NCBI RefSeq assembly: GCF_964194155.1
Contig: NC_135881.1
Location: forward strand, 150,536,001 to 150,600,000
DNA from: Cetorhinus maximus
Taxonomy: Eukaryota
Direction: 5' to 3'
Length of the DNA stretch: 64,000 nt
Within the stretch, counting starts at the first letter, position 1, and each line of letters opens with the position of its first letter. The notes under the pieces were generated by a model. The model did not search any database, was not told where the DNA came from, and saw only the letters and a list, made by a program, of their open reading frames with translations. Positions 2,487 to 48,540 of this stretch are shown here, one piece after another. Made by a program: the position numbers and the translations under genes.

Positions 2487-2955
2487 TTTCAGCTATGGCT
2501 CAGTTGGTAGCACTCTCACCTCTGAGTCACAAGGTTCCAGGTTTAAGTTCCGCCCTAGGACTTGAGCACAGAGAAATCAAGGCTGGCTCTCCAGTGCAGT
2601 ACTGAGGGACAGTTACGCTGTCAGAGGTACCATCTTTTGGATGAGATATTAAACTGAGGCCTCATCTGCCCTCACAGATGGACATAAGAGATCCCATGAA
2701 CCATTTTGAAGAAGAGCAGGGAATTATTCCTGGTGTCCTGAGCAATATTAATCACTATATCAATGTTGCAAGAAACAGAATGTCTGGTCATTGCTGTTTG
2801 AGGAAGCTTGCTGTATGCAAATTGGCCATCACGTTTCTAACATTGCAACAGTTTACAGTTACTGCAGTGTAAAAGTACAGGTACTTAAATTGGCTGCAAA
2901 ACGCTTTGAGATGCTCGGTGGACATGAAAAGTGCCATATAAATGCAAGTCTTTTT
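2487..2955 (+). mobile_element. tRNA-derived DeuSINE (SacSINE1-like)
   Basis: A-box TGGCTCAGTTGG head; Deu-domain-like CAGTGCAGTACTGAGGG...GAAGAAGAGCAGGG; ends ATAAATGCAAGTCTTTT; homologous to 42388-42846. Confidence 0.85.
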
Positions 2956-4318
2956 TTTACTATTTTACACAGGAGCATAGGAATATACAGATATGGGTAG
3001 ATCACTGTCAACCATCCAGTTGAATTAAAATAAATTTGGGTTATTTCCTTTTTTTAAGTGATGGGAAGGTGAATTTTATGCAAATAGATTAACATGTTTA
3101 TCACATATTGTAAAGCGTGCTTCACACCCATGTATGATTTAGTAAAGTATAGCCTTCAACTGATATGACTGGCATGATATATAAATATATAAAAATATAC
3201 GTATTATATATATGGAAAAACAGTAATATATTGTTTGATTGAAAACTATAATAATGTTCAAAACAAATCTAAATTTGAAGTGTCATATCATTCCCATCAT
3301 TAAACGGGGCAGCTATTTTAATTTGAGACTGATAGGAGAGCAACTTCATGTACCCACCCAGCTGAGCCCAATGGTATTATTCAAAACAAAAACACAATAA
3401 AATCTAGCCCTGAATTCATTTAAGATGGTGAAAACAGATAACATAAATGTATTCCACTTGCAAAGTTCACGGCAGTTATTCTTCATCTTTATGAAGCATT
3501 CCTGTCTAATCTGACAGAAGTCAATGAAAAGAATCTATTTCCTTGCAAATCTGCCTGTTTAGTATTATCGTGTAAAAAAATTACTTATGCTTCACAGCGT
3601 GCTATCTCTTTGGTACATTGCTAGTTGCAGAACTTGGCACATAATAAATTAATGTTCAATTTCCCATCTAATGGCATGGAATAATTGTACAATGCAAGTA
3701 TATGGTTAGAAACTTGATGTATGGATATTTAGGGATTCTTCTTGTGTGGTATGTACAATAATAGTATGACTAACTCCAGACCATTTTCTCAATCGCTTGT
3801 TATATATGCACTTATTAAACAGTTTTGGGCAGAGAGTCTGAGGGTATATTGACACTGCAAGTTTCTCTGATGGTGTAAGGTGATTTCAGCTCCACACCAA
3901 CATGAAACGAGAAACATAAACCCAGGTTCACCAAATCAAAAGCAATTTGCCAACCAAAAGTACAGTTTTTGATTAAAAATATTAATAATTTCTAAAAAAG
4001 TAAAATTTGAGATGTTTATCTTTGCTACGACCTGTAAGAATCTCAGTGGGCTGACACTGGAGCTGCAGTGTCTTGCAGTAGGTAAAAAGGCGTTTGAATC
4101 TCTGAAAGGGTTAGTAACACTGTGCTATGGTTTGACATCAAGTGGAGCATAACTGCAGTGTCAAACTGGTTTACAAAATTAGGCTCCCTTCCCACTTTGT
4201 AACCCATAAACATAAATATTCTGAGTGTGGTAATTTTGGGGGACAGCTCTATGAAATGCATCCTGATTCCTCTTTTTGATTTTGGATAGGAACATTGTCG
4301 ATTTGAGGTTGATTTATT

Positions 4319-14716: not shown

Positions 14717-16119
14717 TGGCCTAGATTTTCATCCCCTAGGTGGGTAGGTGGAGTCAGGAAAATTCCTGGCTCGGATCCACCCACCTCGAGAGAAGTGCCT
14801 GCAGAGACAAGATTTTCATTGCTGGGGGATTGAGGGTGGCTGGAATCGGGCCAACCCAGGAAGAAGTGAGGAGGCAGCCCTGGGGCCTGCCTTGGTGCTG
14901 TGGGGCTTTGTTCCAGCTAAAACAAAAAACACAAAGGCCCTCCATCCCTCCTTCACCCTCCAAACACTCCCTATGCTCCATCCATGCCACCTCAGGGCCC
15001 CCACCCACCTCCCATGCCACCTATCCCAAACTCTGCCCCTCTACCCACCCCAATGGCCCCTCATACGCCCAGATATGGCTCTTCCATACCCATTGACCCA
15101 CTCTACACTTTCTAGAACCAATGAACCCTAGAGTGTACAGTGGGAAGGGTAGAAAAATGCTTTTAAAAAAGTAATTCATTGAGAACTTTCTCCTATGTTT
15201 GAAAGGTCTGAGCTACAAGTTAATAAAAGTGTCAATCATCCAGACCCTTTGAAACACTATGAAACTGATAGCAGAGATCAGAGAGCTTGAGCTGTCAATC
15301 AATTTCCTCTGGGGAGCAGATCTTCTCATATTCTAATAGCCGCCTGAGCTCTCAACCAAGAATACATAATGAGGCTTGGCCATCAGTAACCGGTTTTATG
15401 CATTCCAGGTCCACTGACTGGAAGATCCTGGATATACCTATGGCAGAGCCCTCGAAGGACCCAAAGGCAAGATAGTTGAGTTTGGCCATCTCTCTGACAG
15501 CTACTGGTATTGTGTGGCTACCAGCAGGCTACAGGTTTTCTTTTACCACCATCTGATGCAATAATCTTAGCCTCCTGAACATTTGCTGTTCCAACATGTC
15601 AAGTAAACTCAGCCTCTGGCTAAACACACTGTGTCACAATTAGTGCCACCCCTCTGCTGCTCCCCCTGTGGTAATTATGGTCTTATTTGATGTGCATTAT
15701 ACCTTTAAGAAGAATGTTATTAAGGAAGATCACATGATCTTAGTGTCCAATAGGAGGATAGTGTGGGCTCCCTCCGTAGTTAATGGTTGGTAGTGTAGAG
15801 ATAGAGTTTAAAGTGAAAGCACATGTTTAGTTGCTGCTGAGTACATTTGTAAATAAACTAAAAGTTTCCCACCTGAGAAGTGTGTGCTGATCAACTCCAT
15901 AAATAGTACCAACTCGCCCATCACTCACAACAAACTGGCGATGAAGATCCACAGGATCTAACAAACTGGTGACGAGGATCTACAAGACTCAACAAACTGG
16001 TGACGAGGATGAAACAAGTTTAACAGAAGAAATCAAAAGAGGTGAAATTGGCGCTGTACATCGCACATTAATTGTCAGTAGAAGCACCGTTCAAATCGAC
16101 GAAGTAATTCCCTCACAGA

Positions 16120-17240
16120 ATGCTGTAATTCAGAAGAATTGATCCTTTTGATCCAGCAACAGAAGACTGGTCTCACTACTTGGAACGTCTCACATTCTTT
16201 TTCCAAGCAAATGCGATTACGAGGGAAGAGAAGTTACAGGAGATTCTCTTAAGTACATGGCTTGATTCGAAGTTTGATGGCACTCAGTGCCCCAAATTCG
16301 AAAACTTTTTATGAATTGATGGACCTTGTGAAGGGTCATTATCAACCAAAGCCCTCAGTAATGATGCAAAGGTTCAAGGTTAACTCGAGAAATAGAGCCC
16401 CGCGGGAGACAGCCGCATGCTATGAGGCAAGTTTGAAGTAATTAATGGAACATTGTGAGTTTGGTACTTCCCTAAACAATATGCTTAGAGATTGTGAATG
16501 AGGACATGATTCAGAAGTGATTGTTATTTGAAGCAAATTTGGATTTCAAGAAGGCATTAGAGATAGCATTGGTAATGGAAAATGCAGAAAGAGATTCAAA
16601 AGCCATACAGGGCACGCAAAATGGAGCTGTCCTCCACGTCAGCTGGGATGCCCCAACCAAAAAGGGCACAAAATACATGCCGAGAAGCAGGAAAATGAGA
16701 AAAAATGACTTAGCAGCAAAAACAAGGAATAATTTCAATAGAGATGGAAACAGGCAGTCTTTTGATGATTGGCAGTTTAAAAAAAATAGAATGTTTTTAT
16801 TATCATGGTAATGGGCAGATAATGAGACAGTGCAAGGAAAGAATCAAGCAGACTTTTAAACAAAAGAAAAAACACAGTGAGATCTACAATGTAGAAGATC
16901 CTGAAACAACAAATTCAGATATTTACTCATTGTTTAATTTGAAGGTTGGAAAGACAGAACCAATATATGTAACAGTGAAAGTGAATGGTAGAGCTGTTAG
17001 AATGGAAGTGGACACAGGAGCTTCCACTACAGTAATTGGTGAACAGACCTTCAAATGTCTGAATAATTTAGGATAATTAAATTTAGAAGAAACAACTGCC
17101 CAATGAAAACATACACCAGTGAAGACAAAGGCAGAAGCAGAGTAAAAGTCTATTATGGAAGCCAAACGGCAAAGCTACCAGTATTAGTATTGAGAGGCAG
17201 AGGACCAAGCCTTCTCAGGCAAAACTGGCTCAAGGAATCA
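16120..17240 (+). pseudogene. Gypsy gag and aspartic protease (frameshifted)
   Basis: IDPFDPATEDWSHYLERL, LDFKKALEIALVMENAERD, degenerate zinc knuckle CFYYHGNGQIMRQC, protease MEVDTGASTTVI. Confidence 0.85.
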
Positions 17241-17289
17241 GCCTTGAGTGGCCACTGAGATTCCAAAAGGAAGCTGGAAGCATTTTGTT

Positions 17290-17710
17290 TTGGAGTGTGT
17301 AAAGACTCAGCAACCTGAAGAAACACAGGCTGTCTTAAGCCAAAACATGGTAGAACAGGAGAAGGAACTCAAGGACACTATGCTTGATGACAGAGTTCAT
17401 GATGAGGTGAGAAATCTTCGAAAGGATAAAGAAAACCTGCTGAAAGACCTTCACATGCTACAAGATTCCCTCAGGTCTAAGTTTGTACCTCTGGAAAAGT
17501 CTGAAGAGAAACAGAAAGAATTCAGCACTTCTCTGAATAAACTGAAGAATGAGTTGGCAGAAAAGTACAACAATGCTCAATTTTCCAGGAGGCAGCAAAC
17601 AAATACAAAGAAGAGATGAAAGAGCTGAATAATCAGCTACATGAAGCCAAAAAGGCTTTGGAGGCAAAAGTCGTGGAATTTTCTAAGCAGGCAGATGATA
17701 AAATTTTAGG
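17290..17710 (+). pseudogene. Non-retroviral coiled-coil segment resembling UACA/RAI14/ANKRD24-family proteins, at the RT position
   Basis: ORFs 17248..17619 and 17616..17801: EKELKD...EVRNLRKDKENLLKDLHMLQDSLRSKFVPLEKSEEKQKEFSTSLNKLKNELAEKY; no RT motifs. Similarity is recalled, not searched. Confidence 0.55.
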
Positions 17711-17869
17711 AGACTCAACCGTTGAGTTCACTCAAGTCGGACTTGCACCTGAGAGTAGTCTGGCCAATATTGAAGCCAATAGAAAAGAAGGGCAAGATTA
17801 AAGTCAGTGCTGGGAAGAGGAAGGCACGTATAAAGAAGGCACAGAAACACAAATAAGTCTTTAATCCTG

Positions 17870-19085
17870 GCAGCATATGAGTATACTTTTGTACATAGGC
17901 CTGGCAGTCAAATTGCAAACGCTGACACACTTAGTCATTTGCCTTTATGAGAAAATGATGAGGAAGCCCCAGTTCCCCAGGAACTTGTTTTATTGTTAAT
18001 TTCCTTAGATTCCTCACCAGAATGCGCTCAACAGATCAGAGATTGGACAAGTTGGGGCCCAGTCCTATCCAAAGTATGAGAACAAGTACTTCACGCTTGG
18101 TCACAAGAGCCTGTATCTGATGAAATGAAATCATACTCAACAGAAGACATGAAATAACCAGCCAGGATGGCATCTTATTGTGGGGAACACGAGTGATAAT
18201 AGCTCCAAAGGGAAGAGGGCCATTGCTAATTGAACTACACAGCACACATCCAGGAATGTCCCGAGTGAAGACCATAGCACGCAGCTACCTATAGTGGCCT
18301 GGGATGGATGGTGAAATGGAGAGTTTAGTGAAGAATTGTGTGCGATGTCTGCAACTGCAAAAGTTACTTCAACAGCTCCGTTACACCCTTGGGAGTGGCA
18401 AGGAAAACTGTGGTTGCGGTTACACATTGATTATGTGGGATCTTTCATGGGAATAATGTTTCTGCTCATTGTTGATGCCCAATCAGAATGGATGGACATA
18501 TATGAGGTGAAGTCAACAATATCTTCTGCTACAATTGAGAAGTTACGTCAAAGTTTTGCCATTAACAGATCACCAGAAGTGGTCGTTTCTGATAACGACA
18601 CGGCATTTATGAGTGCTGAGTTTTAGCGGCTTATCAACCTCAATGGTATCACTCATGTAAAAACTTCATCGTACCACCCTTCCTCGAATGGACTGACCAA
18701 AAGGGCGGTTCAAACATTCAAGGCAGGCATGAAGAAGCTAAACGGAGATTCCCTAGCAACCAAGCCAGCACACTTTCTTATCCCGTACAAGACCACCCCT
18801 CACCCAATCACAGGTGTCACACCTGTACAGTTATTGATGAAACACCAAATTTAGGGGGGATGGTGGAAAGGAGCCAGGGAAGTCAGAAACTAGACACGAC
18901 TGGCATCATGGTGAGAGAAAATTTAGCGTGGGAGAAACAGTATACGTGAAGAACTTTGGAGAAGGACCAAAATGGTTACAGGGTGAAATAACTGCAGTGA
19001 CTGGACCTCTATCTTACCACGTGGAGGTGGAAGGCTGAGTCATATGGAGATATTTGGATCATCTAAGGAAGAGAGAAATGAATCA
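17870..19085 (+). pseudogene. Gypsy RNase H C-terminal tail and integrase (frameshifted)
   Basis: HRPGSQIANADTLSHLP; HHCC region LHSTHPGMSRVK...CVRC; core LHIDYVG...IVDAQSEW...VVSDND; YHPSSNG. Confidence 0.88.
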
Positions 19086-20151
19086 CCAAGAAGTGATTCC
19101 ACTAGTGTTCACGACCAGGTCAGTGTTTCCTGTTGAGAGAACTCCACTGAGTACAGACAAATCTGATATTCCTTCAAGAGTGGAGGATACAGATCTGCAG
19201 TTACCCGCCAAAGCACCTGATGTTTGGGTAACTCAGAAAAGGAGGTTCCTGACAAAGCACCTGTAGTTGTAGAGCTGAGTTGCCCTACGTGCATAATGAA
19301 ACCCCCAGAAAGTCTAAATTTGTAAATTACTTATCAGTGTAAATATTTTGCTACTTTGAGAAAATTGTAATTGTAAATGTAAAATGTATTTCTGAGTATA
19401 GGGGGAGGGATGTGGTAATTATGGTTTTATATTAAAGGTAATATACCTTTAAAAAGAATGTTATTAAGGAAGATCACATGATCTTAGTATCCAATAGGAC
19501 AGTAGCGTGGGCTAACTCAGTAGTTAGTAGTTGGCAGTGTAGAGATAGAGTTTGAAGTGAAAGTACATGTTTAGTTACTGCTGAGCACTTTTGTAAACAA
19601 ACTATAAATTTCCTACCGATAAAGTGTCTGCTGATCAACTCTATCAATAGTACCAACTTTCCCAACACTTACAACAAACTGGTGATGAGAATCCATAGGA
19701 TCCAACAAACTGACGATGAGGACCTACAGGACTCAACACCCCTCTGCTGCTGCCCTTTCTCCCATATTCATTTGTGGGTCTCTTAACAGCAAGCTGCTGC
19801 TGCTGCTAGAGTTGGTGCTGGTCCCTTGCCTGAGGTACTATCTAAGGCAGCCAAAGTGCTATTCATCCTTCTATGATTCATAAAACCTCCAAAGTATAGA
19901 AATTAAACTCTTGGCAGAAGTATTGTGCAACAACACCTTCCCACTAGCTGGTAAGAAAGCAGTTGTGAGTACTGAGCATTATTACAGCATATCTATAAAT
20001 TGGTACTAGCCCCCTCTATTGCCATTGTGTTGGTTTGCTTTGCAAGTTTTACAAAGCCTACAAACCCCACGAATGCAACATTAAAATTAAAACTGTGTTG
20101 AAATATTGCTTCAATTAAGCAATTACCATACATTAATAGACAACCCACATC

Positions 20152-22082
20152 TTTTTTTTTTGTAAAAATATACTTTATTCATAAAATATCTTCAATCACA
20201 TTCCAAACCATTTCAAAAACAACATTACAAGGGTACAATCCAGGTTACACTTTTACAAGATGTATCACCAGGTGCATCAGTACAAACAATATTACAATCA
20301 TTTACAGCCTTTCATTTTGATCTGTACAGCCCGAGGGGCTCTAAACAGTTCCCAGTCTCTCGGTGCGCTGTGGTAGAAAGGTCTTAGACAGCGACCCTTC
20401 CCCATTGCGCCTTTGCGGCAGCTGCCCCAAGCTTTAGTGCGTCCCTCAGCATGTAGTCCTGGACTTTGGATTGTGCCAGTCCGCAACAATCGGTCGGGGA
20501 CAACTCTTTGTGCTGGAAGACCAACAAGTTTCGGGCAGACCAAAGCGCGTCTTTCACCGAGTTGATGATCCTCCAGCTGCAGTTGATGTTTGTCTCGGTG
20601 TGTGTCCCTGGGAACAGCCCATAGAGCACAGAGTCCTGTGTCACAGAACTGCTCGGGATGAACCTCGACAGCAACCACTGCATCTCTCTCCAGACTTTCT
20701 TTGCAAAGGCACAATCCACAAGGAGGTGAACAACGGTCTCTTCCCCACCACAGCCACCTCGAGGGCAACGTGCAGAGGGGGTGAGCCTCCTGGCGTGTAG
20801 GAAGGATCTGACGGGGAGGGCCTTTCTCACCACCAGCCAAGCTACGTCTTGGTGCTTGTTGGAAAGTTCTGGCGATGAGGCATTCTGCCAAATGACTTTG
20901 ACAGTCTGCTCGGGGAACCATCCCACAGGGTCCACCCTCTCCTTTTCCCTCAGGGCCTCTAGGACGTTACGTGCTGACCACTGCCTGATGGACTTGTGGT
21001 CAAAGGTGTTTTTCTGCATAAATTTTTCCACCAGGGACAGGTGGTACGGCACGGTCCAACTACTTGGAGCGTTCCGCGGCAGCGTGGCCAGACCCATCCT
21101 TCGCAACACCGGGGACAGGTAGAACCTCAGCACGTAGTGACACTTGGTGTTTGCGTACTGAGGGTCTACGCACCGCTTGATGCAGCCACACACAAAGGTG
21201 GCCATCAGTATGAGGGCGATGTTGGGCACGTTTTTTCCCCCTTTATCTAGAGGCTTGTACATCGCGTCCCTGCGGACACGATCCATTTTCGACCTCCAGA
21301 TAAAGCGGAAGATGGCTCGAGTGATCGCCATCGCGCAGGAGTCTGGAATGGGCCAGACCTGCGCCACGTACAGCAACAGCGAGAGTACCTCACACCTGAT
21401 GACCAGGTTCTTTCCCGCAATGGAGAGGGAGCGTCGCTCCCACATGCCCAGTTTCCTTTTCACCATAGCCACTCGCTCCTTCCAGTTTCTAACGCATGCC
21501 CCGGTCCCTCCGAACCATATCCCCAGCACCTTCAGGCCGTCAGCCCTGACAGTGAAGGGGACAAAGGATCGGTCAGCCCAGTTCCCAAAGAACATGGCCT
21601 CGCTCTTCCCACGATTTACCTTGGCTCCCGAGGCCAGTTCGAACTGGTCGCAGATGTGCATCAGTCTGCGCACCGACAGCGGATCCGAGCAGAAGACGGC
21701 GACGTCGTCCATGTACAGGGAGGCTTTTACCTGAGTGCCTCCACTGCCTGGGATCGTCTCTCCTCTTATGCCCGGATCCTTCCTGATGGACTCGGCAAAG
21801 GGTTCTATGCAACACACGAAAAGGACAGGCGAGAGAGGACAGCCCTGCCTGACTCCAGATTTGATCGGAAAGCTATCTGTTTCCCACCCATTGATTGAGA
21901 CTGCGCTACTGATGTTAGTGTAGAGCAGTTGGATCCAATTTCGAATTCCCTCCCCAAACCCCATTTTGGAGAGCACATCCCCCATGTAGGTGTGCGATAT
22001 TCTGTCAAAGGCCTTCTCCTGATCCAAGCTGATGAGGCAGGTATCCACACCCCTGTCCTGTACATAGGCAATCGTATCCCTG
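20152..22082 (-). mobile_element. Tx1/L1-clade LINE, 5'-truncated, young
   Basis: Poly(A) tail; perfect 16-bp TSD AGACAACCCACATCTT (20138-20153 and 22083-22098); uninterrupted ORF2 fragment. Confidence 0.95.
20384..22082 (-). CDS. Tx1-like ORF2 C-terminal part (RT and zf-RVT), 5'-truncated
   Basis: LDQEKAFDRISH, GVRQGCPLSP, LYMDDV, CPRGGC...ETVVHLLVDC. Confidence 0.9.
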
Positions 22083-23544
22083 AGACAACCCACATCTTCT
22101 GAGGAGGTTGCACACAACCTGCCTAACCTGTTCGAGTTAAAAGCATGTGTTTGAGGTTTGAACTGGCTTTCTGACCCACTTACATTTTTGCCAGACTTAC
22201 TGTCTCACCCTGCCACCCACACCCAAACCCATGTGCTCCCCCAGGTTAAAATTACATTCCTTCCATCCTATCTATGCCACTTGGAATGGGAAGTACAGGC
22301 AGACATAGGGCTCTGTCTATCTCTATGTCCCCTGATGATTTACGGCTCCTTAGGCAAATGAGAAATTGTTAGAAATGGTGGATAATTGGCCTTTACCAGG
22401 AGAACTCCATTGATTTCCTGCTGAAGTAACAGTGGAAAAGTAGACGAACTTCTGAGTTTGTGATTGATGTTATATTTCTGGTGTTAAAGGATAAGAGTTG
22501 TATGATTGCCCCACTTTCTTTTTCAATTCCACACAATATTCATTGGCTGGCGGATGTCCACTATATTTATTTAACTGCTTAAATCAGAAATGAAGTGACA
22601 GTGTGGCTAATATGAAAAAATAATTTAAATGTCTACCTAACACAAGTAGTAAATCAATTCTACAATATCACTGAAAATTGAATGGTATCATTTTTATTAT
22701 GATATACAGGATACTGTTACTTTGATCTTACATCTTGTAATGGATTGCATTTATAAACTAAGTAGATTATTTTTAAAATGAAAGCATTTTACTCCACAAT
22801 GTATGTTCTTAACATGTAGATGATGAAGTATAATTAAAAGATATTCATCAAAATGATTCGAACTATAAAAGAAATTTTCTTCAGAGCTTGTGTTTTATTC
22901 TAGCACATTTTCAAGCTACAGTGGAAGGTCAGAAGAAAGCACAACTAGGAACAGAAGCAATAAATAATTTGTGCTGTGAAGTGATGTGTTGCCAAGAACA
23001 AAATGCATCATTTTTTCTTACAGTGACAATTTATATTTTGCATATAAATAAAACATTAAGCATGCTGCAAATACTGTAATTCCCAGTGAAGGAGAGTAAG
23101 ATTAGATTACCTTCCGTATGAATGGCCTTTCTTATCCTTTGAAAAATAGTCTACCTTCATCCACCTTCATGTACATATAAGGTAGAAATGACAACTCATC
23201 AGCAAATTATGTGGGGGTAATGTCCCTCCGAGAAAATAACTTCTCCACCTGTCTCCCTTTGTATTCTGAATAACAGTGGGGAAGGAGCATTGAGACCCAA
23301 AAAACATTTAAGGGGAGTTTGCCACATTTAAGAGGATGCTTGATGCATATATGAGGGAGCAGGAAATATAGGGATATGGGCGCATGGTGGATACGGGTAT
23401 TTAGACCGGGAAGAGACTCATGCTGAATATGAATAACAGTCAGGTCAGGTGGGACGAATATCTTGCATCTACGCTACAGAACCAAATGGCCTAATCTTAA
23501 CTGTGAGATGAGCTGAGATTCGGCGGACTGATATCTTTGCCGCT

Positions 23545-23690
23545 CCCCTCCCTGCTGCTCCTCTCTCTGCTGCCCCACTCTCTTCTGCTCCTCACTCTGC
23601 CTCTCCTTTTTGTACTGCTCCTTTCTCTGCTGCTTCTCTCTCTGCCCCTCCTCTCTCTGCCCCTCCTCTCTGTGCTTCTCCTCTCTCTGT
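23545..23690 (+). repeat. Pyrimidine-rich ~15-bp minisatellite (CTCTCTCTGCYNCTC)
   Basis: Roughly ten degenerate tandem units are visible. Confidence 0.8.
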
Positions 23691-23894: not shown

Positions 23895-25478
23895 CTGTTG
23901 TAGCCATAATACTTATATGACTGGTCCAGTTGAGTTTCTGGTCTGTGGTAACCCTCCAAGATGTTGATAGTGGGGGATCCAGCGATAGTAATGCCATTGA
24001 ATGTCAAGCCTGAATGCTGTCCAGGTCTTGCTGCATATTGGCACGGATTGCTTCAGTATCTGAGGAGTTGCAAATGGAACTGAACACTGAGCAATAATCA
24101 ACGAACATCTCCATATCTGATCTCATGTTTGAAAGAAGTTCATTGGCGAAGCAGCTGAAGATGTTTGGGCCGAGGACACTACCCTGAGGAACTCCAGCAG
24201 CAATGTCCTTGAGCTGAGATGACTGACCCCGAACAACCACAACCATCTTCCTTTGTGCTAGGTATGACTCCAACCAGTGCAGAGTTTTACACCAATTCCC
24301 ATTAACTTCAAGTTTGCCAGGGTTCCTTGATGCTACACTTGGTCAAGTGCTACCTTGATGTCAAGGGTAGTCACTCACCTCACCTCAGCTCTTTTGTCCA
24401 TTCTTAGACTAAGGCTGTCATGCGGTCAGGAGCTAAGTGGTCCTGGCAGAACCCAAACTGAGCATCAATGAGCAAGTTATTGCTGTGTAAATGTCACTCA
24501 ATAGCACTGTCGATGACATCATCCATCACTTTGCTGATTGGCCTGGTTGAGTTTGTCCTGTTTTTTGTGTACAGGACATACCTGGGCAATTTTCCACATA
24601 GCTGGGTAGATGCCAGTGTTGTAGCTGTACTGGAACAGCTTGGCTAGGAATGCAGCAAATTCTGGAGCACAAGTCTTCAGTACTATTGTCGGAATGTTGT
24701 CAAGGCCCATAGTTTTGCAGTATCCAATGCCTTCAGCCGTTTGTTGATATCACGTGGAGTGAAGCGAATTGGCTGAAGACTGGCATCAGTGAACCTGGGA
24801 ACCTCAGGGGACCTCAGCAGGAGGCCGAGATGGATCATCCATACGGCACTTCTGGCTAAAGATGGTTGCAAATGCTTCAGCCTTATCTTTTGCACTAATT
24901 TGCAGGGCTCCGCCATCATTGAGGATGGGGAGATTTGTGGTGCCTCCTCCCCCTCTTGTTAATTGTTTCATTGTCCCCCACCATTCATGACTAGATGAGG
25001 CTGGATTGCAGAGTTTTGATTTGATCCATTGTTGTGGGGTCACTTAGCTCTGCCTATTGCATGCTGCTTACCCTGTTTGGCACGCAAGTAGTCCTTCACC
25101 AGGTTGACACCTCATTTTTAGGTATGCCTGGTCCTGCTCCTGGCATGCCCTCCTGCACTTTTTATTGAACCAGACTGGATCCCCGGCTTGATGGTAATGG
25201 TAGAGTGAGCAATATTCTGGGCCATGAGATTACAGATTGTGGGTGAATACAATTCTGCTGCTGCTAGTGGCCCACAGTGCTTCATTTATATGGCTAGTCC
25301 AGATGGATACTTATCAGCCCTCTTATTTGTTCTCTCACCCACCTACTGCAAGCCCAAACTGGCAGATATGTCCTTCAGGACCTGGCTAACTCGGTCAGTA
25401 GTTGTGTCACCAAACCACTTTTCATGATAGACTTTGAAGTCCCCCATCCAGAGTACATTATGTGCCCTTGTCATCCTC
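23895..25478 (-). mobile_element. CR1-group LINE (second family), older decayed copy with APE and RT remnants
   Basis: GVPQGSVLGP, LAKLFQYSYNTG; APE-like VLWMGDFK at ~25430-25460; homologous to the adjacent + copy. Confidence 0.88.
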
Positions 25479-27478
25479 AGTTCAATGAAGAGTGCAGGGG
25501 GGCGTGCCAGGAGCAGCACCAGGCATACCTAAAAATGAGGTGTCAGCCCGGTGAAGCTATAAAACAGGACTACTTGTGTGCCAAACAGCATAAGCAGCAA
25601 GTGATAGACAGAGCTCAGCGATCCCACAACCAACGGGTCAGATCTAAGCTCTGCAGTCCTGCCACATCGAGTCGTGAATGATGAAGGACAATTAAACAAC
25701 TAAGTGGAGGAGGTGGCTTCACAAATACCCCCATCCTCAATAATGGAGGAGCCCAGCACAGCAGTGCAAAAGATAAGGCTGAAGTATTTGCAACAATCTT
25801 CATCCAGAAGTGCCGAGTGGATGATCCATCTTGGCCTCCTCCGGAGGTCCCCAGCATCACAGATGCCAGTCTTCAGCCAATTCAATTCACTCCATGTGAT
25901 ATGAAGAAATGGCTGAAGGCACTGGACACTGCAAAGGCTATGGGCCTTGACAACATTCCAGCAACAGTACTTATGCTTCAGAATTTGCCGTGCCCCTAGC
26001 CAAGCTGTTCCAGTACAGCTACAACACTGGCATCTGCCCGGCAATGTGGAAAATTGCCCAGATATGTCCTGTACACAAAAAGCAGGACAAATCCAACCCA
26101 GCCAATTACTGCCCCATCAGTCCACTCTCGAGCATCAGTAAAGTAATGGAAGGGGTCATCAACTGTGTTATCAAGCGGCACTTGCTTAGGAATAACCTGC
26201 TCACTGATGCCCAGTTTGGGTTCCGCCAGGGCCACTCAGCTCCTGACATCGTTTCAGCCTTGTTTCAAACATGAACTAAAGAACTGAACTCCCGAAGTGA
26301 GGTGAGAGTGACTGCCCTTGACATCAAGGCTGCATTTAACCAAGTGTGGCATCAAGGAGCCCTAGCAAAACTGCAGTTAATGGGAATCAGGGGGAAAACT
26401 CTCCACTGGTTGGAGTCATACCTAGCACAAAGGAAGATGGTTGTGGTTGTTGGAGGTCAGTCATCTCAGCTCCAGGACATCACTGCAGGAGTTCCTCAGG
26501 GTAGTGTCCTAGGCCTAACCATCTTCAGCTGCTTCATCAATAACCTTCCTTCCATCATAAGGTCAGAAGTGGGGATGTTCACTGATGATTGCACAATGTT
26601 CAGCACCATTTGTGACTCCTCAGACACTGAAGCAGTCCATGTCCAAATGCAGCAAGACCTGGACAATATCCAGGCTTGGGCTGACAAGTGGCAAGTAACA
26701 TTCACGCCACACAAGTGTCAGGCAATGGCCATCTCCAACAAGAGAGAATCCAACCATCGCCCCTTGATGTTCAATGGCATTACCATCACTGAATCCCCCA
26801 CAATAAACATCCTGGGCTTTACCATTGACCAGAAACTGAACTGGACTAACTATATAAATACCGTGGCTACAAGAGCAGGTCAGAGGCTAGGAATCGTGCG
26901 ACAAGTAACTCACCTCCTGACTCCCCAAAGCTTGTCCACCATCTACAAGGCACAAGTCAGGAGTGTGATGGAATACTCCCCACTTGCCTGGATGAGTGCA
27001 GCTCCTACAACACTGAAGAAGCTGGACACCGTTCAGGACAAAGCAGTCCACTTGGTTGGCACCACATCCACAAACATTCACTCCCTTCACCACCGATGGA
27101 CAGTAACAGCATTGTGTACCATCTACAAGATGCAGTGCAGGAATTCACCAAGGCTCCTTAGACAGCTCCGTTCAAACCCATGGCCACTACCACCTAGAAG
27201 GACAAGGGCAGCAGATAGGTGGGAACACCACCACCTGGATGTTCCCTTCCGAGTCACTCACCATCCTGACTTGGAAATATATCGCCGTTCCTTCACTGTC
27301 ACTGGGTCAAAATCCTGGAACTCCCTTCCTAACAGCACTATGGGTGTACCTACACCACATGGACTGCAGCAGTTCAAGAAGGCAGCTCACCACCACCTTC
27401 TCAAGGGCAACTAGGGATGGGCAATAAATGTTGGCCCAGCCAGCGAAGCCCACATCCCGTGAATGAATAAAAAAAAAC
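25479..27478 (+). mobile_element. CR1-group LINE (second family), 5'-truncated, 3' end intact
   Basis: QFGFRQGHS, ALDIKAAF, GVPQGSVLG, FTDDC; ends GAATGAATAAAAAAAAA. Confidence 0.92.
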
Positions 27479-45804: not shown

Positions 45805-48540
45805 GTGAGTTCCCGCGACGTGGTGTGACGCACATGGATTCAGTGCCGCAAGCATTTCAGTGACCTCTTGCGCTCTAGAAGGGTGAGTGCCATGTTGGCA
45901 TTGGTCACTTAACACAACAGGTCAGCTTTCCCCGCTGGCTACCACTGCCCCCCCACCAACTCTGAGTGCAGTTACTGCATTGAGTCATTGACGGCATGTG
46001 TCCTTTGCTGGCTTGGCCAGCAGATGTTGCCCGTGCCGAGGTCACCCTGAGAGGGTGATGATGAGATTGGTTCTGCACTCATTAGATTGACACCCACATT
46101 ACTATTTTGGGGTCAGCCTGGAGGATCTGCATCTAGGCGCCGTGCTGCAACTGCAAAACGTGTCACAGTCAGGGTGCTGACATGCTGGGAGGGGAGCTTC
46201 CAGGAGGCACGGCACTGATCCATCTGCTGCCCTTTGCATTCCATGTGCTTGCACCTTCTTGCTTTGCAAGCTTAGACCATGTGATGCCAAATGTGATGTA
46301 GGCAGCATTTGGCCGGGGGGCTGGTATGGACAGTCCTGGTATCTTTGTGTGAGTGTGCAGCAGCTGTGGAGTGAGGAGGCACTGGAGCCCTCAATGTCCC
46401 ATTATGGTTGGCGTGGGACGGCAGCGAAGAGATTCCAGGTACAAGTTGCACTAATCAATGCTCTTCTCTCCATTTCAGGAGAAGAATGCTCATAGTGCCG
46501 CTGAGCGATTGAGGACTGGCGGAGAGCCGGCCCAGTTGGCGATCAATAGCGGGTTTGAGCAGGAGGCCTTCCATCTGGAGAGGCCGCCATGCGCCCAGGT
46601 CCACCGGTGTCGGTGAGGCTGGGGTGCCACGGGCAGGTATGGTTGCCCAGCACTGAGGTCACCATTAGTGTCCAAGCAGCCATGGCACTGCTGAATGTTC
46701 AGTGATTGAAGTTTGCAACATGGCTTGACCATTGTTTACGGAAGGATGAGCGAATAGTGATCCAGGGGACAGGGATGCACATTGGCATTGTCTCCACGTT
46801 AACTAATCAAATGTCCTTCTTCCTTTCAGCATCAGCGGAGCAGGGCTGGGAGGAGGAGCAGCAGGGGCCCCCTCTCACACCTGAGGGCCCTGAAGTCTCT
46901 GACCCAGCAGCATCACACCATTTCTGCCAGAAAGGCACCAACGCAGATACTAACACCTTGGTGAGAATTAGATCATCGGCTAGTGTCCTGGGGTACAGCG
47001 GTGAGGGCACTTCATAGTCGCTGGAGGAGCTGGCAGAGACAGAGAGCGTCCATGGCGCCAGCAGTCGGAGGACTGCAGGGGACCAGGCACACGCTCAGTC
47101 GGTGGCTGATGATGTGCCTCTGGAGTCGTCCGTGAGGCAGCAAATGCTGGAAGTCCAGCAGAGTGTGCAGGAAGATCTGGCAGAGATACATGAGGCTATG
47201 CTTGACTTGGTCTTCATGGTGGAGGAGTCCACGCGGACCATTGCCAATGCAATGAGTCTCATGGCCAAGCGCCATGCTTCCTCCATGGAGAGAGTGGTGA
47301 CTGTCATGGAAAGGCTCCTCCAGGAGACCAATCAGGGCTTCCTGGGGATGCACTCTGACCAGCAAGCCCTCACATCGGCATTGACCTCAGCTGGTCAGTG
47401 CCAGTGTGGGAGATGGTCTGGGCACCAAGTTTCCCAGCTCGGTGCCCATCCATCTACGGTGAGCAGGGAGGTCTGAAGCGACCTCATGTCGGCCAGCAGC
47501 TGCCTGTCGTCTCTGCGGGCTCCTCTCAGGGCGCTCCGGATGAGGGCAGCAGCTTCTCCGCCCCTCTGCCAGTGACCGTGGCATCCGATGAGGCTGCAAC
47601 AACTGGGGAGATGCCAGCTATGGAACTGGCTGCTCCCTCCCAGGCGGGGCCAGCACAGGCTCCACGGGCCAGAGGACAATCGCCAAGGTCATCAAGGCCA
47701 ACAGGACAGCAGAGAGAGCAGGCTGTCTCAGATGCCAGTGCCAGCGAGGGGGGGAGCACCTTTTTTTTTTTTTTTTTTGTAAAAATATACTTTATTCATA
47801 AAAATCTTCAATCACATTCAAAACCATTTCAAAAACAACATTACAAGGGTACAATCCAGGTTAAACTTTTACAAAATGTATCACCAGGTGCATCAGTACA
47901 AACAATATTACAGTCATTTACAGCCTTTCATTTTGATCTGTACAGCCCGAGGGGCTCTAAACAGTTCCCAGTCTCTCGGTGCGCTGTGGTAGAAAGGTCT
48001 TAGACAGCGACCCTTCCCCATTGCGCCTTTGCGGCAGCTGCCCCAAGCTTTAGTGCGTCCCTCAGCACGTAGTCCTGGACTTTGGATTGTGCCAGTCCGC
48101 AACAATCGGTCGGGGACAACTCTTTGTGCTGGAAGACCAACAAGTTTCGGGCAGACCAAAGCGCGTCTTTCACCGAGTTGATGATCCTCCAGCTGCAGTC
48201 GATGTTTGTCTCGGTGTGTGTCCCTGGGAACAGCCCGTAGAGCACAGAGTCCTGTGTCACAGAACTGCTCGGGATGAACCTCGACAGCAACCACTGCATC
48301 TCTCTCCAGACTTTCTTTGCAAAGGCACAATCCACAAGGAGGTGAACAACGGTCTCTTCCCCACCACAGCCACCTCGAGGGCATCGTGCAGAGGGGGTGA
48401 GCCTCCTGGCGTGTAGGAAGGATCTGACGGGGAGGGCCTTTCTCACCACCAGCCAAGCTACGTCTTGGTGCTTGTTGGAAAGTTCTGGCGATGAGGCATT
48501 CTGCCAAATGAGGGGGGGAGCACCTAGACGAAGCACCTGA
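45805..48540 (+). pseudogene. Harbinger Myb/SANT-like gene, multi-exon, disrupted
   Basis: RTWIQCRKHFSDLLRSRR|GTGAGT (45882); acceptor CATTTCAG|EKNAHSAAERLRTGG (46478); acceptor CCTTTCAG (46828) then coiled-coil QQMLEVQQSVQEDL. Confidence 0.8.
47761..48509 (-). mobile_element. Tx1/L1-clade LINE, 5'-truncated, near-identical to the 3' part of the 20152 copy
   Basis: Poly(A) tail; perfect TSD GAGGGGGGGAGCACC (47746-47760 and 48510-48524); zf-RVT C-terminus. Confidence 0.95.

Follow-up and report, generated by a model that had tools for sequence, protein, structure and literature searches.

According to the textbook rule, an LTR retrotransposon carries one primer-binding site (PBS), located just outside its 5' LTR. 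The element reported here resembles the fish K02A2.6-like Ty3/Gypsy elements, which presumably belong to the Mag-like clade, a label that we assume here for a copy in which reverse transcriptase (RT) is missing; its order of LTR end, short AC/AAC gap, 13-nt tRNA-Ser site and A-rich leader is that of the relative L047. A tRNA-Ser PBS is also described for a Mag-related locust element (PMC3391268, in part). The PBS normally lies just downstream of the 5' LTR, where tRF3a blocks reverse transcription and tRF3b silences translation via the PBS (PMC12853362, in part). HIV-1 MAL carries a heritable primer-site duplication at the U5/leader junction, found in 14% of isolates (PMC3185550, in part), and Drosophila gypsy and yeast Ty3 and Ty1 have more than one tRNA-binding site per element (PMC1635307, in part). 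In the open-access literature we found no description of a tandem PBS array inside LTRs; the pattern may be present in repeat libraries such as Repbase. Here we describe a cassette of PBS plus LTR end that is present in variable number inside the LTRs of an old Gypsy family and that is a real, subfamily-level feature.

The array lies in an element at 15667-19738 on the forward strand of the window, by which we mean the whole 64-kb stretch of DNA analysed. The two LTRs (15667-15994 and 19411-19738) are each 328 bp long, start with TG and end with CA, and align without gaps with 50 differences in 328 positions (85% identity, K2P 0.173). They are flanked by a 4-bp target-site duplication (TSD), CCCC, at 15663-15666 and 19739-19742, and an 11-nt purine run at 19400-19410, directly 5' of the 3' LTR, forms the polypurine tract. 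We compared the locus with contigs from 4 of 24 runs, of which X1 and X4 derive from one sample of organism A, X13 from organism B and X6 from organism C; loose contig ends at 15667 were numerous in all four, supporting the start of the 5' LTR. Between the LTRs, remnants of gag and protease containing stops and frameshifts (16129-17249; tblastn matches to P0004 and P0012 and the Pfam aspartyl protease) are followed by the broken end of RNase H and integrase remnants (17858-19074), all collinear with the Gypsy polyproteins P0004 and P0012. RT and most of RNase H are absent, and residues 411-860 of P0004, which cover them, had no match in the element; foreign, coiled-coil-like DNA occupies their expected place (17250-17857). 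The integrase was 49-65% identical to 16 matches from 65 candidates, and the named ones were all teleost 'K02A2.6-like' proteins. The element is a K02A2.6-like Ty3/Gypsy copy that is non-autonomous and dead. The foreign DNA, about 600 bp with open pieces of 123 and 82 aa, gave no Pfam hit, homolog or convincing Atlas match and is possibly a captured host gene fragment.

Organism B has the same 5' insertion junction (X13 record 9, with 4 mismatches over 168 letters), and by simple arithmetic on sequence divergence (~8.6% per LTR against ~1.2% per lineage) the insertion is several times older than the split between organisms A and B. The repeats of the host would fit a cartilaginous fish. The element sits in a degenerate 14-bp CT-rich tandem (15646-15666 and 19739-19760) that resembles a 15-bp minisatellite at 23534-23689. 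A target preference for such tandems found no support, as agreement with the flank consensus was only 0.34-0.38 at 15666/15667 and the flanks of other copies gave no sign of it. Elsewhere in the window, a second, related Gypsy remnant at 1519-2180 comprises an integrase C-terminus (73% DNA identity over 82 bp), a purine tract and the apparent 3' LTR of another family, which carries no PBS array. A nest of long inverted repeats at 23956-26815 has arms that are 76-91% complementary and forms a quasi-palindrome of ~2.9 kb, LINE-like in appearance, and the end of a young repeat, beginning with poly(T), is present in two copies (20152-20483 and 47769-48099) that are 98% identical to each other and probably belong to a recently active LINE on the minus strand.

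The preliminary description of this DNA had reported three units of LTR end plus primer site at a 31-bp period at 15930-16011, and the letters are exactly as quoted there; Tandem Repeats Finder returned a period of 31, 2.7 copies and a score of 101 for the same interval. As had also been proposed, a gap-free second copy of units 1 and 2 lies 3744 bp downstream, at 19673-19738; the two units were therefore copied as part of U5, a placement that a putative poly(A) signal (AATAAA, 15852-15857) would likewise imply. Each module is made up of AAC, a 13-nt site for the tRNA-Ser(GCT) primer and 15 nt of spacer, which closes with a predicted usable integrase end, so that in each unit, as claimed, an integrase-type end precedes AAC and a primer site. 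Upstream of the first module lies what contig joints and geometry point to as the plain LTR end (…AACA) of relatives without extra units (15918-15932, here End 0). Module 1 (15933-15963) contains PBS1 (15936-15948) and a spacer with a CAACA-type end, and module 2 (15964-15994) contains PBS2 (15967-15979) and a spacer whose last 4 nt are the real end of the LTR. The following AAC and PBS3 (15995-16010, with PBS3 at 15998-16010) form the primer site outside the LTR, as indicated by the end of the 3' LTR, the TSD and the tRNA-Ser(GCT) match. The 3' LTR closes with the same two modules (19677-19738). With up to 3 mismatches, the 19-nt motif of LTR end plus PBS occurred at five places in the 64 kb, all five of them within the arrays, and in none of 100 shuffled sequences. 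A self-restoring intron built by duplication was considered as a separate candidate and rejected, as neither array contains AGGT or AGGC and the period is 31 nt.

Units 1 and 2 belong to the LTR, because the right copy of the CCCC duplication directly adjoins the end of unit 2. The array predates the insertion, since units 1 and 2 are told apart by unit-specific letters at three offsets that are identical in both LTRs, and since the LTRs differ from one another at the same rate in the array (10/62) as in the LTR body (38/251). The end of the 3' LTR coincides with that of unit 2 and adjoins the target duplication, which shows that the tRNA primed this insertion at PBS3, the third site, and that the polymerase copied through the two sites upstream of it. 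The breakpoints of the modules fall exactly where the 13-nt match ends on its 3' side, and the modules retain no A-rich leader; the leader follows the PBS in most contigs (85-95% of the depth at 16011) and in relative L047.

The assignment to tRNA-Ser(GCT) holds against a published human primer (PMC9072684, in part) and tRF-3a (PMC8632637, in part), references that may differ from the host's own tRNA-Ser, and the match common to the sites is 13 nt rather than the 15 nt given in the preliminary description. Against the human reference the three 5' sites matched at 11, 12 and 12 of 13 positions and both 3' copies at 10 of 13; predicted binding of the 5' units to the tRF-3a/tRNA end was -14.8, -21.3 and -24.3 kcal/mol. 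ARAGORN detected no tRNA genes in the 64-kb window.

To place this copy among its relatives we turned to the contigs, a fragmentary form of evidence in which the statements on single records concern 15 of 87 joints, 12 of 22 between-letter rows, 24 of 1380 loose ends and 32 of 14367 pieces. With 2894-4277 matched records per run, the wider family has a very high abundance. Among the records listed, paralogous contigs of 81-84% identity that bear modules were present in organisms A, B and C. X1 record 4 (28 differences in 175) covers the LTR body and then unit 1 and breaks off 1 nt past the unit end, leaving 75 unaligned letters, as would be expected of an LTR that ends after one unit, although this is one contig with a depth of 3.65. 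X13 record 14 (33 differences in 184) continues through unit 1 and PBS2 and then leaves the alignment, and X6 record 29 (37 differences) contains unit 2, PBS3 and the leader, with no continuation into unit 1. In 10-17 contigs per run, the letter at 15981 is of the spacer type and follows a primer site. A joint in X4 (15965->16012) leads from a single extra unit into the leader. In X13 record 12 no more than 57 letters are available, against expected lengths of 54, 85 and 116 for zero, one and two extra units, placing it at zero, and X1 record 6 has fewer than two. A back-joint in X6 (16011->15930) is ambiguous and could represent either two type-1 spacers in a row or at least three extra units. 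Joints whose short side could consist of the repeated core alone (15948->16044 and 15911->15990) were left out of these counts, as were the count of other-letter contigs at 15959 and the 15959/15921 ratios as evidence on spacer 1, because any LTR end in that register shows the same letter at 15959.

Unit number therefore varies among copies, with zero, one or two extra units in related contigs, as had been anticipated, and the suggestion that only this copy has the array is ruled out by module-bearing paralogs in three organisms. Because modules occur in paralogous copies with different unit numbers and an LTR appears to end after unit 1, the array is a subfamily trait inherited through reverse transcription and no local accident. 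Relatives without extra units appear to be the majority: the summed depth over spacer 2, which is not a copy number and is read only as indicating a minority, was 0.04-0.11 of that of the LTR body, so that most relatives replicated without spacer 2. Both of the two IMG/VR relatives confirmed by protein, from 29 candidate stretches, had a single PBS, and one of them, L047, has the same 13-nt site followed by a run of A. Pattern searches for a tandem PBS array were made in collections with almost no animal DNA, so that their blanks are uninformative on its range: viral contigs gave 2, 0 and 0 stretches, the two being acidic coding repeats; metagenomes gave 28 stretches, mostly coding or simple repeats by eye, none of which matched the element by blastn or tblastn; and prokaryote genomes gave 16 single matches, none with a second site nearby. 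The element's own integrase piece had no match among the viral contigs. One unrelated public contig (L018:180-284) contains a 31-bp minisatellite with a 12-nt PBS-like motif and no match to the element, probably a coincidence. Separately, in 36-68 contigs per run the LTR start motif lies directly before 15688, marking a sister subfamily whose LTR start is ~11 bp shorter.

How could such modules arise? The array is unusual and probably a tolerated by-product of element copying, and we favour, with moderate confidence, a model in which modules were gained and varied through reverse transcription and were tolerated rather than required. Most likely, a high-copy K02A2.6-like Gypsy subfamily gained 31-nt modules, each made of a U5 end with its integrase end, AAC and the 13-nt tRNA-Ser primer site, by slippage or out-of-register strand transfer. 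The origin would lie where the copy of the tRNA ends, because the module boundaries fall where the 13-nt match stops and no A-rich leader is included. A tRNA priming at the most downstream site carries all upstream modules into minus-strand strong-stop DNA and hence into both LTRs, as the position of the TSD shows for this copy, and since each module would supply a valid integrase end before a primer site, any of them could define the end of the LTR. The number of modules would change whenever the tRNA primed at an inner site or the minus-strand end paired with one, and would thus drift among zero, one, two or more. The primer halves would stay matched to the tRNA through being copied from it or recently duplicated, with selection unneeded. 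Inheritance via reverse transcription, use of the last site to prime this copy and differences in unit number were all observed, and the route that connects them is the part we propose. Against this model, the expected derivation of the spacer from the LTR end upstream of it was not borne out, with only 3-5 of 11 identities (P=0.12-0.53, chance level) and the terminal CAACA as the only common part, so that a one-step duplication of today's end is unsupported; identity between spacer and leader was likewise only 2-3 of 11. Moreover, PBS1 is near-perfect while its spacer has become unlike End 0, a contrast that goes beyond neutral decay alone unless the spacer came from the end of another subfamily.

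The tolerated by-product model has to be weighed first against selected redundancy, according to which several priming-competent modules raise the capture of primer, or bypass a site blocked by the 18-nt tRF3a, with any module leading to integratable cDNA. Consistent with the claim that the primer half would be the better conserved, fixed differences between units numbered 0 of 20 in the 20-nt core and 3 of 11 in the 11-nt spacer (one-sided Fisher p=0.037), a comparison that leans towards constraint but that was made post hoc in one element with few columns, and in which one spacer difference of the three, at 15981, involves a letter that only a minority of the family carries, leaving 2 of 11 without it. 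Decay after the insertion was spread over core (7/40) and spacer (3/22) alike (p=1.0), and is neutral and uninformative on selection. The predicted binding to tRF-3a and tRNA kept by every 5' unit, the presence of modules in paralogs of three organisms, and the blocking of reverse transcription at the PBS by tRF3a (PMC12853362, in part) also speak for selection, but relatives with zero extra units are apparently the majority, this copy was primed at its last site, and re-templating from the tRNA explains the same pattern. Neither the variation in number nor the conservation of the primer half is evidence of function, because slippage during strand transfer and re-copying from the tRNA predict both equally. 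We consider selected redundancy possible but unlikely, and a fully selected cassette, in which each module is a working primer site and integrase end kept to secure priming against blocking by tRF3a, more doubtful still.

The spacer might instead be structural, either folding back on the tail of the PBS and so masking internal sites, or pairing with the T-arm of the tRNA like a primer activation signal. Unit 1 is predicted to fold into a 6-bp hairpin that covers the final 4 nt of PBS1 (-6.4 kcal/mol, z=-2.35, 6 of 200 shuffles), but the other three spacers fold weakly (-1.9 to -4.8 kcal/mol; z of +0.88, +1.13 and -1.85), the whole region folds no better than shuffles (z=-0.71 and -0.26), the first 9 nt of each PBS stay open, the predicted binding of tRNA outcompetes the hairpin, and a directly repeated palindromic hexamer yields a hairpin automatically. 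Pairing of U5 with the T-arm is known in HIV-2 (PMC3185550, in part) and three of the four spacers agree with the T-arm complement in 8 of 10 aligned columns; however, this similarity has P=0.075-0.41 and the gain in duplex stability P=0.20-0.59 (against the last 32 nt of the tRNA), and we regard a structural role as improbable. Positions 15945 and 15959, which close the hairpin of unit 1, both differ from the 3' LTR and compensate each other, either by chance or through quasi-palindrome repair after the insertion.

A role as decoys for tRNA-fragment or PBS-directed silencing, which the preliminary description had raised, would at least give solo and 3' LTRs of the subfamily sites that match tRFs, while ordinary solo LTRs lack the downstream sequence (PMC12853362, in part). 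It is mechanistically weak: extra sites on the same RNA or DNA would add targets for Argonaute or a repressor rather than divert tRNA fragments, the 3' copies in U5, behind the putative poly(A) signal, would fall outside the end of the genomic RNA, and the copy is old and dead, making this role very improbable. Finally, tandem arrays arise readily in host DNA, but slippage there after the insertion, with spread between the LTRs by gene conversion, is hardly credible, as the equal divergence of array and LTR body indicates no recent conversion, the 3' copy of the array adjoins the TSD, and the paralogs that also carry modules largely refute it.

A family with zero to two or more copies of PBS plus end in U5 is a natural record of the primer site used for each insertion, readable from the length of the 3' LTR and the position of the TSD. 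If the 5' array were set against the 3' array in a large number of copies, the frequency of internal priming and of out-of-register second-strand transfer could be measured in vivo, and selection on the extra primer sites could be tested at the same time. Solo LTRs with built-in tRNA-Ser sites would place targets of tRFs, and possibly priming sites, beside host genes; were the modules a true multi-primer cassette, solo and 3' LTRs could, unlike ordinary solo LTRs, start reverse transcription of read-through host RNA. Were they neutral, they would constitute an annotation pitfall, in which programs that rely on the PBS would put the LTR end 31 or 62 bp away from its true position.

Overall, the element differs from each of the known systems that it resembles. 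Compared with its fish K02A2.6-like counterparts, it has two extra modules of PBS plus end built into both LTRs, whereas the two relatives examined have one PBS, and this copy is without RT and most of RNase H. In HIV-1 MAL the 23-nt insert is a partial copy that lies downstream of the working PBS and outside the LTR (PMC3185550, in part), in contrast to the full 13-nt sites found here, which carry integrase ends, are located upstream within both LTRs and are present in variable number. In Drosophila gypsy and yeast Ty3 and Ty1 the second site is complementary to another region of the tRNA and is located near the 3' end of the RNA (PMC1635307, in part), whereas the sites of the present array are tandem copies for the same tRNA 3' end.
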